Below, piece after piece: positions 29,539 through 32,000 of a DNA stretch of 32,000 bases. The DNA is from Acaryochloris marina S15. GTDB taxonomy: Bacteria > Cyanobacteriota > Cyanobacteriia > Thermosynechococcales > Thermosynechococcaceae. The DNA lies in NCBI RefSeq assembly GCF_018336915.1, contig NZ_CP064923.1, forward strand, positions 90,001 to 122,000, in the 5' to 3' direction. Under the pieces are notes generated by a model. The model had not been told where the DNA came from and did no database searches. It saw nothing but the letters and a program-made list of their open reading frames with translations. Every line of letters starts with the position of its first letter. Position 1 is the first letter of the stretch. A program made the translations under genes and the position numbers.

Positions 29539-32000
29539 ATGTCTACCCAGAACCCTGCAGAAATCGCTGAAAAACTTTTTGAGGAACTTGTTTCCAGCCT
29601 AAATCTAGAGAATTTGATTGAAGGCACCTCTGATGATGATATTTTGCCGGGTTCATTTGGTGATGACATCATTGTCGGATTGAGTGGTGATGATAGGATC
29701 CTTGGCCGTGCAGGTAATGACCTTCTAATTGGGGATAAACCACCTGGTGAATCCGGCGAGTCTAGTGAATCTGGCGAATCTGGCGAATCCGGTGAATCTG
29801 GTGAGTCTGGAGAATCTGGTGAAGGTACTACTAACGACTTTATCGATGGTGGTTCTGGGAACGACACTATTTTGGGTGGAGATGGAGATGACACCCTAAA
29901 AGGCGGTTCTGGTGATGACTTCATCATTGGAGGGAATGGCATTGATGAAATCTACGGTGGTGCAGGGAACGACACCATTGTGGGTGGAATCCCTGGTGAA
30001 AGTAGCTCAGCCGGAGAATCTGGCGAATCTGGAGAATCTGGCGAATCTGGCGAGTCCGGTGAATCTGGAGAGTCCGGTGAATCTGGAGAGTCTGGAGAAA
30101 TAGGCTTTGCTGACATCATTGATGCTGGAGCCGGAGACGATGTGATTGATGCCGGAGAAGGAGCTAATACCATCGATGGTGGTAGTGGCGATGACATTAT
30201 TGATGCAGGTCATCAGGGTGATTTAGTCTTCGCAGGCAGTGGCAATGACTTCGTTAATGGTGGCGAAGGCGGTGAAGATGGTGCTGATACGATTTCTGGT
30301 GGTCAAGGAGATGACACCGTTTTCGGTGGTCAAGACGATGATGTCATTCGTGGTGGTAGTGGTAATGATGTTCTGACAGGCGGAGAATCTGGAGAGTCCG
30401 GCGAATCTGGAGAATCTGGAGAATCTGGCGAGTCTGGTGAGTCTGGAGAATCTGGCGAGTCTGGTGAGTCTGGAGAATCTGGCGAGTCCGGCGAATCTGG
30501 CGAGTCCGGCGAATCTGGAGAATCTGGAGAGTCCGGTGAGTCTGGCGAGTCCGGTGAGTCTGGAGAAGGTACTGCTGATGGAAATGACTTCATTGATGGT
30601 GGTTCTGGGAACGACACTATTTTGGGTGGAGATGGAGATGACACCCTAAAAGGCGGTTCTGGTGATGACTTCATCATTGGAGGGAATGGCATTGATGAAA
30701 TCTACGGTGGTGCAGGGAACGACACCATTGTGGGTGGAATCTCTGGTGAAAGTAGCTCAGCCGGAGAGTCTGGAGAATCTGGAGAGTCCGGCGAATCCGG
30801 TGAGTCTGGAGAGTCTGAAGAGTCTGGTGAGTCTGGCGAATCGGGCGAATCGGGCGAGTCTGGTGAAGGCGGTGAAGTAGGCTTTGCTGACATCATTGAT
30901 GCTGGGGCCGGTGATGATGTGATTGATGCTGGTGAAGGAGCTAATACCATCGATGGTGGTAGTGGCGATGACATTATTGACGCAGGTCATCAAGGTGATT
31001 TAGTCTTCGCAGGTACTGGCAATGACTTCGTCAACGGTGGTGAAGGTGGTGAAGATGGAGCTGACACAATTTCTGGTGGTCAAGGAGATGACACTGTTTT
31101 CGGTGGTCAAGACGATGATGTCATTCGTGGTGGTAGTGGTAATGATGTTCTGACAGGCGGAGAATCTGGCGAGTCTGGAGAGTCTGGAGAATCTGGAGAG
31201 TCTGGTGAATCTGGAGAGTCTGGTGAATCTGGAGAGTCTGGTGAATCTGGCGAGTCCGGTGAGTCTGGAGAAGGTACTGCTGATGGAAATGACTTCATTG
31301 ATGGTGGTTCTGGGAACGACACTATTTCGGGTGGTGATGGAGATGACACCCTAAAAGGCGGTTCTGGTGATGACTTCATCATTGGAGGGAATGGCATTGA
31401 TGAAATCTACGGTGGTGCAGGGAACGACACCATTGTGGGTGGAATACCTGGTGAAAGTAGCTCAGCCGGAGAATCTGGCGAATCTGGAGAATCTGGCGAA
31501 TCTGGAGAATCTGGCGAATCGGGCGAGTCTGGAGAATCGGGCGAGTCTGGAGAATCTGGAGAAGGCGGTGAAGTAGGCTTTGCTGACATCATTGATGCTG
31601 GAGCCGGTGATGATGTGATTGATGCTGGTGAAGGGGCCAATACCATTTATGGCGGTAGTGGCAATGACATTATTGATGCAGGTCATCAAGGTGATTTGGT
31701 CTTCGCAGGCACTGGCAATGACTTCGTCAACGGTGGTGAAGGTGGCGAAGATGGAGCTGACACAATTTTTGGCGGTCGAGGAGATGACACCATTTTGGGT
31801 GGCATTGGAGACGACTCCCTGAATGGTGGTCGAGGCAGCGATATCCTCACAGGACAAGCAGGAGATGACATTTTGGTTGGTGGGCGTGGGCCTGACACCT
31901 TTGTTTTCGATACAGGTGATGCATTTGCGATTGAAGACCTAGGGACTGATACCATTATGGATTTCTCAGGCTCAGACAAGCTTGCACTGGGGCTTAGCAC
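29539..32000 (+). CDS. RTX (hemolysin-type calcium-binding repeat) protein with interspersed (Gly-Glu-Ser)n tracts. The gene is partial and continues past the window end.
   Basis: Absent from the ORF track because no stop lies in the window. I translated frame 1 from ATG 29539 (ggag 9-12 nt upstream) and found 820 codons with no stop. It has many GGxGxD nonapeptides ([47 protein letters not shown]) and a tail reading [37 protein letters not shown]. All opposite-strand ORFs here are short and of (SPD)n type. Confidence 0.88.
29746..31800 (+). repeat. Near-identical ~0.7-0.78 kb tandem macro-repeats inside the RTX gene (about three copies)
   Basis: The landmark ggtgatgacttcatcattgg recurs at 29911, 30661 and 31366 (spacing 750 and 705). 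The landmark caagacgatgatgtcattcg recurs at 30331 and 31108 (spacing 777). Unit length differs only through the (GES)n tract lengths. Confidence 0.85.
30382..30561 (+). repeat. Longest 9-bp microsatellite-like tract, (GGN GAR TCN)20 encoding (GES)20
   Basis: By eye there are six tracts: 29746-29817 (8 units, one SES), 30013-30093 (9), 30382-30561 (20), 30763-30861 (11, one EES), 31159-31266 (12) and 31468-31557 (10). Synonymous codon variation occurs within the tracts, and an 18 bp super-period is visible in tract 5. Confidence 0.85.

Follow-up and report, generated by a model that had tools for sequence, protein, structure and literature searches.

An RTX protein with six length-variable (Gly-Glu-Ser)n tracts in an iron-acquisition island of Acaryochloris marina

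The DNA analysed here (the window) is a 32,000-nucleotide stretch of the genome of Acaryochloris marina S15, a chlorophyll-d cyanobacterium. It ends within a gene for an RTX protein in which blocks of GGxGxD nonapeptides alternate with six tracts of the triplet Gly-Glu-Ser (GES). The RTX family is well known; hypervariable (GES)n spacers within an RTX protein are what is new, and on the sequences searched the mosaic appears to be rare. The reading we favour, and consider probable, is that of a secreted-type RTX protein whose calcium-dependent beta-roll blocks are joined by disordered, polyanionic (GES)n linkers of tunable length, encoded in a cassette within an iron island.

Reading frame and architecture of the RTX/(GES)n protein

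The gene lies on the plus strand. From an ATG at 29539, preceded by an in-frame stop at 29518, the frame stays open for 820 codons to position 32000, the edge of the window; the strand, frame and codon count proposed in a first-pass annotation of this DNA are thus borne out by translation. The annotation had also remarked that the gene was absent from the open reading frame (ORF) track. This is true, but the cause is mundane: the ORF runs off the end of the window, and the listing drops such ORFs. Orthologous loci were reached through the neighbouring LCM methyltransferase gene, using the members of its cluster in other strains. The ortholog in strain NIES-2412 has 891 amino acids (contig L185, 10206–12881). 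The strain closest to the window sequence is Moss Beach, whose published nearest relative is S15 (PMC9029297). The Moss Beach allele (contig L184) retains the six-tract architecture, but its ORF is split by an IS630-like insertion sequence (IS) of ~950 bp, inserted at a TA in block Y2 (L184, ~13630–14582). Both alleles continue past the window end with an identical 78-residue extension, TFTALTSEAG...FATLSGTPSLSTDNFELI, followed by the stop. Full-length orthologs range over ~891–898 amino acids; the window covers 91% of an ~898-residue protein and lacks the last 78 codons and the stop. The 78 extra residues include a standard RTX cap and a putative secretion-type C-terminus, ...IVYSSQSGSLFYNENG...FATLSGTPSLSTDNFELI and the stop, the chain ending in DNFELI. 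The C-terminal pattern (...IVY..G.L.YN..G...FATL.G.P.L...., then hydrophobic residues to the stop) is common to the RTX matches P0324–P0326.

The protein has the layout N-[T-X-T-Y]x3-C. An N-terminal region of 69 residues is followed by three copies of a unit that contains two tracts (T) and two blocks, X (65–67 residues, six nonapeptides) and Y (96–99 residues, about ten nonapeptides and one insertion); the last Y runs into the RTX cap. Its assignment as an RTX protein with GGxGxD nonapeptides was confirmed by a Pfam HemolysinCabind (PF00353) match with E = 2.2e-99 over 15 stretches and by 26 strict GGxGxD motifs. A sequence search of the PDB returned the RTX domain of CyaA (7usl, 6e-28), AlgE R-modules, serralysins and lipases. 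Foldseek returned beta-roll proteins only (CyaA, serralysin and AlgE R-modules), and the best fold and sequence matches were the CyaA entries 7usl, 7rah and 6sus. An alignment-supported AlphaFold model of residues 445–820 has a mean predicted local distance difference test score (pLDDT) of 77 and a predicted template modelling score (pTM) of 0.68. In this model strands occur at exact 9-residue spacing in Y2, X3 and Y3 with pLDDT ~90, and tracts T5 and T6 are coil, with pLDDT below 50 and no secondary structure. A single-sequence AlphaFold2 (AF2) model was uninformative overall (pLDDT 32); its helix at residues 6–20 has pLDDT 57–66.

Both the nonapeptide beta-roll and the acidic, Cys-poor composition of the RTX family were found. 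The chain contains 211–216 Asp and Glu residues against 13 Lys and Arg, with no Cys and no Trp, a pI of 4.05 and a mass of ~85 kDa. No hydrophobic (Sec-type) signal peptide is present in the translated N-terminus. The GES units account for 210 of the ~898 residues (23%). They contain no proline and no basic residue, and carry a net charge of −0.33 per residue. By charge and hydropathy (GES)n falls deep on the disordered side (mean H 0.326 vs a boundary of 0.533); the RTX blocks are marginally on that side, as expected of domains that fold only with calcium.

RTX chains are unfolded at cytoplasmic calcium, exported C-terminus first and folded outside the cell (in part after PMC3034196). The protein would present six short beta-roll blocks that depend on calcium, half of them with six nonapeptides and half with about ten, connected by six intrinsically disordered (GES)n spacers and terminated by the RTX cap and C-terminal secretion region. 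Export would presumably be by type I secretion. The most likely role of the spacers is that of flexible, self-repelling and highly hydrated linkers. Before export, at the low calcium of the cytoplasm, they may prevent folding of the chain and maintain its solubility. Outside the cell, they may allow the blocks to fold independently of one another, and may determine how far the secreted or surface-bound molecule reaches and its hydrodynamic size. The 70 carboxylates that they contain would add low-affinity cation binding. At 0.36 nm per residue, the 20-unit tract would span ~20 nm when fully extended, and all tracts together ~75 nm.

The tracts could also be collagen-like. Three chains would then form Gly-X-Y triple helices to give a trimeric stalk or fibril, with beta-roll knobs between rigid rods and tract length serving as rod length, as in BclA or Lcl. 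The Gly-X-Y periodicity is perfect over 8–20 triplets, and the repeat number varies by strain, as it does in known collagen-like proteins. The Pfam Collagen model matches at 39.9–49.5 bits (gathering threshold 27.2), a match that reflects Gly-X-Y periodicity only. There are weak matches to three NCBIfam models, all well below cutoff: SclB (98.6 vs 325), SclA (56 vs 400) and Lcl (33 vs 500). Proline-free tracts of a single triplet (GAS, GTS, GEV) have been classed as collagen-like in the Burkholderia Bucl proteins (PMC4565658). However, known bacterial collagens need high proline and/or ion pairs (PMC4565658), and the tracts here have one uncompensated negative charge in every triplet. No trimerisation or coiled-coil domain is present and the flanks are monomeric beta-rolls. 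The modelled tracts are low-confidence coil, and the sequence GESSSA directly before T2, T4 and T6 breaks the register. Sequence and model together make a collagen triple helix very unlikely, and the triple-helix stalk is the least supported of the three functions first suggested for the tracts.

Three further features of the gene region were noted. Antisense 'PDSPDS' ORFs on the minus strand (29517–31857) are by-products of the repeat, not genes. The GC skew is +0.35 to +0.38 across the RTX gene (30001–32000) against about ±0.1 over most of the window (maximum 0.17), because the coding strand is G-rich in its GGNGARTCN and GGxGxD codons; it is not a replication signal. Beyond the window, ~45 nt past the RTX stop and still within the cassette (L185 12925–12960), there is a perfect hairpin with a 15-bp stem, CTTCAGCACCTTTCC-CTTGAC-GGAAAGGTGCTGAAG. 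From its sequence it is likely a transcription terminator, although no T-run follows it.

Length variation and conservation of the tracts

The unit counts first given for T1 to T6 (8/9/20/11/12/10) are exact. The description of the runs as pure GES holds for T2, T3, T5 and T6 but not for T1, which has one SES, or T4, which has one EES. The degenerate pattern (GGNGARTCN)x6 gave 32 matches in the window and none in 100 shuffles. Tandem Repeats Finder and a repeat finder detected the 9-bp periodicity within the tracts as well as 300-nt direct repeats spaced 696–777 bp. Near-identical modules of ~0.7 kb are therefore present as described, but tract length is not their only difference: two small indels (TTND vs TADGND and GEI vs GEGGEV) and a few substitutions also distinguish the copies. 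That all tract lengths are multiples of 9 bp is true, and a trivial consequence of the 9-bp unit.

All six tracts vary in unit number among the three long-contig alleles, always in frame. The counts for T1 to T6 are 5/9/14/14/13/11 in NIES-2412 and 8/12/18/11/17/7 in Moss Beach. Independent short-read assemblies give T1 lengths of 6, 7, 8 or 9 units between identical flanking protein sequences, and the overall range is 5–9. Length change of the slippage type without frameshift, as had been predicted, is thus observed. De Bruijn collapse could alter individual counts in the short-read (Logan) contigs; the long-contig alleles agree that the lengths vary. The 5′ end of the gene, beside the dioxygenase gene described below, is carried by 11 Logan contigs from ten sequencing runs, and the contigs that reach the RTX gene all break 84–132 codons in. 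This shows that the locus is real and that it cannot be assembled from short reads. The N-terminal region is identical in eight of nine Logan fragments and in Moss Beach; the substitutions are S19F and L26S in Logan fragment L174, and V18F, S19F and L26S in NIES-2412.

Such repeats are hard to assemble, and the early breaks in the short-read contigs would fit an assembly artefact. This explanation is effectively refuted. The six-tract architecture is found in three independent assemblies, one of them a hybrid of Nanopore (174x) and Illumina data (PMC9029297). The reading frame is kept in all alleles, and the 5′ end with tract 1 was recovered in more than ten independent runs.

Compared with their consensus, the 70 units differ at 2 of 420 first and second codon positions (0.5%) and at 89 of 210 third positions (42%). 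This contrast indicates that the peptide is under selection, in agreement with the earlier proposal that the peptide and not only the DNA is maintained. Adjacent 9-mers are almost never identical, and the longest run of identical units is two. The Ser codons of the tracts are all TCN except for one AGT, at the start of the SES unit in T1; neighbouring genes use 40% AGY. GGG is never used for Gly in the tracts. This codon bias (TCN but for one codon, no GGG) points to the descent of all units from one 9-bp unit (consensus GGAGAATCT), which later diverged only at silent sites. X2 and X3 are 98% identical within a strain and positional orthologs 96%, and Y1 of the window is nearer to Y2 of NIES-2412 (96%) than to Y1 of that strain (91%). 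Sequence comparison thus indicates that the modules evolve in concert and as mosaics. Spacer length would shift in steps of 9 bp by slippage and by intragenic recombination between the near-identical modules, giving a protein of hypervariable length.

These data also bear on the idea of neutral decay, by which the GES tracts would be selfish, microsatellite-like expansions in a redundant RTX paralog, tolerated rather than used. A. marina encodes up to 28 RTX proteins (PMC3034196), so redundancy is plausible. The absence of the gene from several strains and its disruption in Moss Beach are consistent with this idea, as is the failure to find the exact proteins in a collection of 15 billion. Yet two strains have kept ~890 codons in an unbroken frame although the gene contains six tracts prone to slippage, and the difference between third and other codon positions is that of a constrained peptide. 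The scarcity of identical adjacent 9-mers is the opposite of what a young microsatellite would have, and the N-terminus is near-identical in more than ten samples. We consider neutral decay quite improbable.

Table 1. Features of the RTX/(GES)n locus (window coordinates)
Feature	Position	Strand	Evidence or remark
Shine-Dalgarno-like GGAG	29525..29528	+	10 nt before ATG; kept in all three strains
RTX/(GES)n gene, 820 codons	29539..32000	+	open frame, Pfam HemolysinCabind, 891-aa ortholog; cut by window end
N-terminal region, aa 1-69: predicted helix aa 6-20, then ~4 degenerate nonapeptides, without Sec signal	29539..29745	+	translation
Tract T1, 8 units (GES2-SES-GES5)	29746-29817; closing GEG to 29826	+	5-9 units among isolates
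Block X1, 65 aa, six RTX nonapeptides, ~3 beta-roll turns	29818..30012	+	homology to X3 (AF2 beta-roll)
Tract T2, (GES)9	30013-30093; closing GEI to 30102	+	
Block Y1, 96 aa, ~10 nonapeptides and one GGEGGEDGA insertion	30094..30381	+	
Tract T3, (GES)20	30382-30561; closing GEG to 30570	+	
Block X2, 67 aa	30562..30762	+	
Tract T4, 11 units (GES6-EES-GES4)	30763-30861; closing GEG to 30870	+	
Block Y2, 99 aa	30862..31158	+	AF2 beta-roll, pLDDT 73-94; site of IS630-like insertion in Moss Beach
Tract T5, (GES)12	31159-31266; closing GEG to 31275	+	AF2 coil, pLDDT <50
Block X3, 67 aa	31267..31467	+	AF2 six strands, 9-residue spacing, pLDDT ~90
Tract T6, (GES)10	31468-31557; closing GEG to 31566	+	AF2 coil, pLDDT <50
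Block Y3 and start of C-terminal RTX cap	31558..32000	+	CyaA, AlgE R-module and serralysin matches; secretion-type C-terminus continues past window
Shared divergent intergenic/promoter region, 557 bp, AT-rich	28982..29538	.	94% conserved among three strains
PiuC/YbiX/CciO-type Fe(II)/2-oxoglutarate dioxygenase, 221 aa, QUY42846.1	28316..28981	-	Pfam, NCBIfam NF003974
Accessory cassette, ~4.2 kb	28209..32000 (right edge beyond window)	.	BLASTN of cassette-free strains vs L185

The two-gene cassette and its iron-acquisition island

The window is an iron-acquisition island. It contains two TonB-dependent receptors, two FecCD permeases, periplasmic binding proteins and two AraC regulators, as well as a sucrase/ferredoxin-like gene, two CP43/IsiA-like genes and a plastocyanin-like gene; the neighbours of the RTX gene in the window match exactly the proteins QUY42831–QUY42846. 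The dioxygenase gene lies directly upstream of the RTX gene and is divergent from it. Its product matches Pfam 2OG-FeII_Oxy_3 and PKHD_C, and NCBIfam NF003974 (PRK05467/YbiX/PiuC type) with 302 bits against a cutoff of 143. The two genes are present or absent together. Both were found in the window, in L184 and L185 and in the 11 Logan contigs, and the strains that bear them are so far red-algal epiphytes. Both are missing from MBIC11017, AP026075 and CCMEE 5410-like strains, where the LCM methyltransferase gene directly adjoins the next methyltransferase gene. The edges of the cassette were located by BLASTN of two cassette-free loci (L190 and L193) against L185, in which homology ends at 8889 and resumes at 13060–13073. 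The cassette thus extends from 19 bp past the LCM stop to ~180 bp past the RTX stop, and ~4.2 kb with exactly two genes replaces ~60 bp. The first-pass annotation had overlooked the iron-uptake setting, the co-inherited dioxygenase gene and the accessory status of the RTX gene.

The intergenic region between the two genes has no Rfam match over its 557 bp; a promoter and terminator scan gave fewer promoter-like sites than shuffles, and no terminator. Gene calls on many Logan contigs include a 50-residue ORF in this region (29125–29277, plus strand). The NIES-2412 copy is truncated by an in-frame TAA at codon 37 and has undergone many non-synonymous changes; the ORF is probably spurious. PiuC/YbiX/CciO proteins are Fur-regulated enzymes of iron homeostasis and are normally paired with a TonB-dependent receptor (PMC12004947). 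No receptor of the Fiu/PiuA/CciT type adjoins the dioxygenase gene, whose neighbours are the LCM methyltransferase and RTX genes. The nearest downstream receptor is four genes past the RTX gene in NIES-2412 and three in Moss Beach, and is present also in cassette-free contexts.

An extracellular role tied to iron limitation is our best guess as to when the RTX/(GES)n protein would be used, because its gene is co-inherited with a PiuC/YbiX-type dioxygenase inside an iron-acquisition island. A further explanation treats the two genes as one iron unit, induced by iron limitation. The secreted polyanion would be an extracellular ligand for Fe(III), for iron in colloidal or mineral form or for some other cation, or else the dioxygenase would hydroxylate the RTX protein before export. 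The strict co-inheritance of the genes and their shared, conserved divergent promoter region are consistent with such a unit, as are the dedication of the surrounding island to iron uptake and the Fur regulation of PiuC/YbiX/CciO genes (PMC12004947). An unrelated metagenomic contig also pairs a Gly/Glu/Ser-rich acidic protein with a PiuC-like gene, but this single case is at about chance level (~0.2 expected), and a PiuC-like neighbour was found in 0 of 40 generic RTX loci. The usual partner of a PiuC-type enzyme is a TonB-dependent receptor, and its substrate is thought to be siderophore-related (PMC12004947). The shared promoter region yielded no Fur box by the E. coli consensus, and the carboxylate and hydroxyl ligands of Glu and Ser are weak, non-specific Fe(III) binders. 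We regard the iron unit as unlikely.

The metagenomic contig in question (L115, 938–2678; CAJHYG010000489.1) has a high GC content and was found with a (GES)6 pattern. It encodes, in this order, an extracytoplasmic function (ECF) sigma factor, the membrane-anchored Gly/Glu/Ser-rich acidic protein, a 132-residue ORF and a PiuC-like dioxygenase that is 46% identical to that of the window.

A more specific proposal would make the cassette a previously undescribed kind of functional unit, with parallels in the action of HlyC on HlyA and of AspH on Ca2+-binding EGF domains. The cytoplasmic dioxygenase might act on the RTX/(GES)n protein ahead of its type I export, for instance as a hydroxylase of Asp, Asn or Pro at or near the calcium sites or tracts, and the exported polyanion might then capture iron or other cations under iron limitation. 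We hold this to be a long shot. If true, it would provide the first protein substrate for the PiuC/YbiX family.

The tracts may instead be a scaffold for serine modification. Dense O-glycosylation or phosphorylation of the serines, each of which lies in an S-x-E context, would make the mature surface protein a glyco- or phospho-polyanion. The sequence around the 70 serines is strictly conserved, and selection on the peptide is strong. Oscillin, a cyanobacterial surface protein of the RTX family, is a glycoprotein and forms fibrils whose surface is highly glycosylated (PMC3034196). Staphylococcal Ser-Asp repeat stalks, which are glycosylated, offer an analogy. However, no glycosyltransferase or kinase gene is present in or beside the cassette, and the neighbouring methyltransferases occur also in cassette-free strains. 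Substrates of type I secretion systems (T1SS) cross the envelope unfolded, so modification would be limited to the cytoplasm or the cell exterior. A modification scaffold is, in our judgement, an unlikely function for the tracts.

Several points weigh against a secreted protein with disordered linkers. Genes for the ABC transporter or membrane-fusion protein (MFP) of a T1SS, which had been looked for as neighbours, are absent from the 29.5 kb upstream (window) and 10 kb downstream (L184, L185). Linked genes of this kind are frequent, but not obligatory, for RTX proteins. The cassette is absent from several strains and the RTX gene is IS-disrupted in Moss Beach; any function of the gene is therefore dispensable. 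The best candidate Fur box in the shared intergenic region has 6 mismatches in 19 positions, with none at 5 or fewer, as judged by the E. coli consensus (cyanobacterial FurA sites are degenerate). Disorder is not proved by low AF2 confidence, and an oligomeric triple helix would escape a monomer model. Tract lengths in the NIES-2412 draft and in the Logan contigs may carry assembly error. We note that accessory status, IS disruption and hypervariability are typical of exposed surface or secreted proteins.

If calcium-dependent blocks on disordered linkers are indeed the correct description, the protein would be a natural 'beads-on-a-string' calcium-responsive polymer with charged spacers tuned by evolution. 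It would offer a system for finding the minimum length at which a beta-roll block still folds, and for learning if a structured cap can be replaced by a disordered spacer. RTX domains are already in use as calcium switches and in hydrogels, which gives the protein a possible relevance to protein engineering. For Acaryochloris ecology it could serve as a hypervariable, strain-specific marker of the cell surface or secretome inside an iron-uptake island. What intrigues us most is that the gene is inherited together with that of a PiuC-type dioxygenase, which offers a testable handle on the substrate of the PiuC/YbiX family.

Other features of the island were noted in passing. An IS630-family transposase gene (DDE_3 and HTH) is located at 4842–5927 (plus strand); it was ruled out as the element that disrupts the Moss Beach RTX allele, as BLASTN gave no match between the two. 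A periplasmic binding-protein gene beside the AMIN-domain TonB receptor (13311–14363, minus strand) has one in-frame stop (...GSGRDGE-stop-QDNF...), which splits it into ORFs of 181 and 163 residues. Its intact ortholog in MBIC11017-type strains has 344 residues (L187 3322–4356), and the split gene has probably become a pseudogene in this strain, unless the stop is a sequencing error. A 231-residue ORF (12583–13278, plus strand) marginally matches the Pfam model of the Type I Thoeris inhibitor Tad6, at 28.8 bits (gathering threshold 27; E = 1.4e-6). It is conserved as a 234-residue gene in other Acaryochloris strains, and a chromosomal iron island is an odd place for an anti-defence-like protein. 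Two CP43/IsiA/Pcb-like genes are found in the window (20008–22389, plus strand), against three in MBIC11017, AP026075 and CCMEE 5410-type strains (L187 10001–13835), where the extra gene encodes 407 residues. The TonB-dependent siderophore receptor at 2429–4693 (minus strand; QUY42831.1) has 754 residues against 835 in relatives from its 90%-identity cluster, a difference that points to the use of another start codon or to the loss of N-terminal residues in this strain.

Rarity of the mosaic and comparison with known systems

Runs of at least six GES units are not in themselves rare: they were found in 12 stretches of viral contigs and in at least 120 of metagenomes. Their hosts are unrelated to one another and include a linker in a GGDEF protein, a BspA-like protein, a coral-type acidic protein and giant-virus collagen-like proteins. 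One metagenome contig of 47.7 kb (L054, 3–2765, minus strand) encodes (GES/GDS)n over more than 500 residues, fused to leucine-rich repeats of the BspA/DUF285 type; it is an extreme stalk of Gly-acidic-Ser triplets outside bacteria-typical contexts. RTX repeats occur in one of ~130 GES loci among the matches listed. This locus (L159, 32–1072, plus strand) encodes 347 residues with an N-terminal (GES)6, Ser/Gln-rich 'QSG..SDQSGTSD' repeats, five or six nonapeptides and a cyanobacterial-style C-terminus.

Searches from the RTX side gave a similar picture. No GES or other Gly-X-Y tract was present in the best 120 word-indexed RTX hits, the best 150 exhaustive HMMER hits or 40 reference-genome RTX loci, the last of which are 24–61% identical to the protein over their best segment. 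Whole-protein searches (word-indexed and HMMER) returned no ortholog, the matches being generic or giant RTX proteins. The N-terminus with tract 1 as query gave no significant match, and the C-terminal domain gave only three weak ones. Exact look-ups of the Acaryochloris RTX/GES proteins in the 15-billion-protein collection found none, and the empty homology searches are partly due to the absence of these proteins from that collection. No description of the mosaic was found in the literature on RTX and collagen-like cyanobacterial proteins, Gly-Glu-Ser repeats or Acaryochloris RTX proteins; the paper on the low-iron transcriptome of Acaryochloris covers only cassette-free strains. With tracts in 0 of 310 RTX relatives, one distant case among the ~130 GES loci listed and no literature description, the first impression that the mosaic is uncharacterised was upheld.

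L159 alone, among the matches listed, has both RTX nonapeptides and a (GES)6 tract, and its C-terminal pattern is similar to that of the present protein. Unlike the protein described here, L159 has a single tract and no modular alternation, and the similarity (30–38% identity) is limited to generic repeats.

The cassette dioxygenase is a bona fide member of the family found in the CciT/CciO, PiuA/PiuC and Fiu/YbiX pairs, and like them it is associated with iron uptake, here through its island. It differs in its partner, which in the canonical pairs is an adjacent TonB-dependent receptor (PMC12004947) and here is the RTX/(GES)n gene.

Oscillin, SwmA and Sll1951/HlyA are, like the present protein, acidic cyanobacterial RTX proteins without a toxin domain, and are surface-associated or secreted (PMC3034196). 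The sequence relation does not extend beyond the nonapeptides, and no (GES)n or Gly-X-Y spacers have been reported in those proteins. The RTX domain of CyaA, which has five nonapeptide blocks, shares the interruption of GGxGxD blocks by non-RTX linkers of variable length and the C-terminal cap and secretion signal (PMC3034196). However, the linkers of CyaA are unique, structured and of fixed length, whereas those here are homopolymeric (GES)n, predicted to be disordered, and hypervariable. Block length differs as well, the blocks here being shorter (6 or ~10 repeats, with ~8 in CyaA), and domains for toxin activity, acylation or enzymatic function are lacking.

With the surface or secreted proteins BclA, Lcl, Scl1/2 and Bucl the protein shares uninterrupted Gly-X-Y tracts with one dominant triplet and a strain-variable copy number; the Bucl tracts are also proline-free (PMC4565658). 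In contrast to the single central stalk of those proteins, six tracts are here interleaved with beta-rolls. Ion pairs and a trimerisation domain are lacking, and the family cutoffs are missed.

In the staphylococcal Clf and Sdr proteins, Ser-Asp (SD) stalks form an acidic, Ser-rich repeat with a short DNA unit, scrambled synonymous codons and strain-variable length, and act as flexible spacers that project folded domains. No evolutionary relationship is involved: the SD repeat is a dipeptide and forms a single stalk in a Gram-positive LPXTG protein served by dedicated glycosyltransferases. In repeat type, codon scrambling and length variation, and probably in the spacer role, the (GES)n tracts nevertheless resemble the SD stalks.

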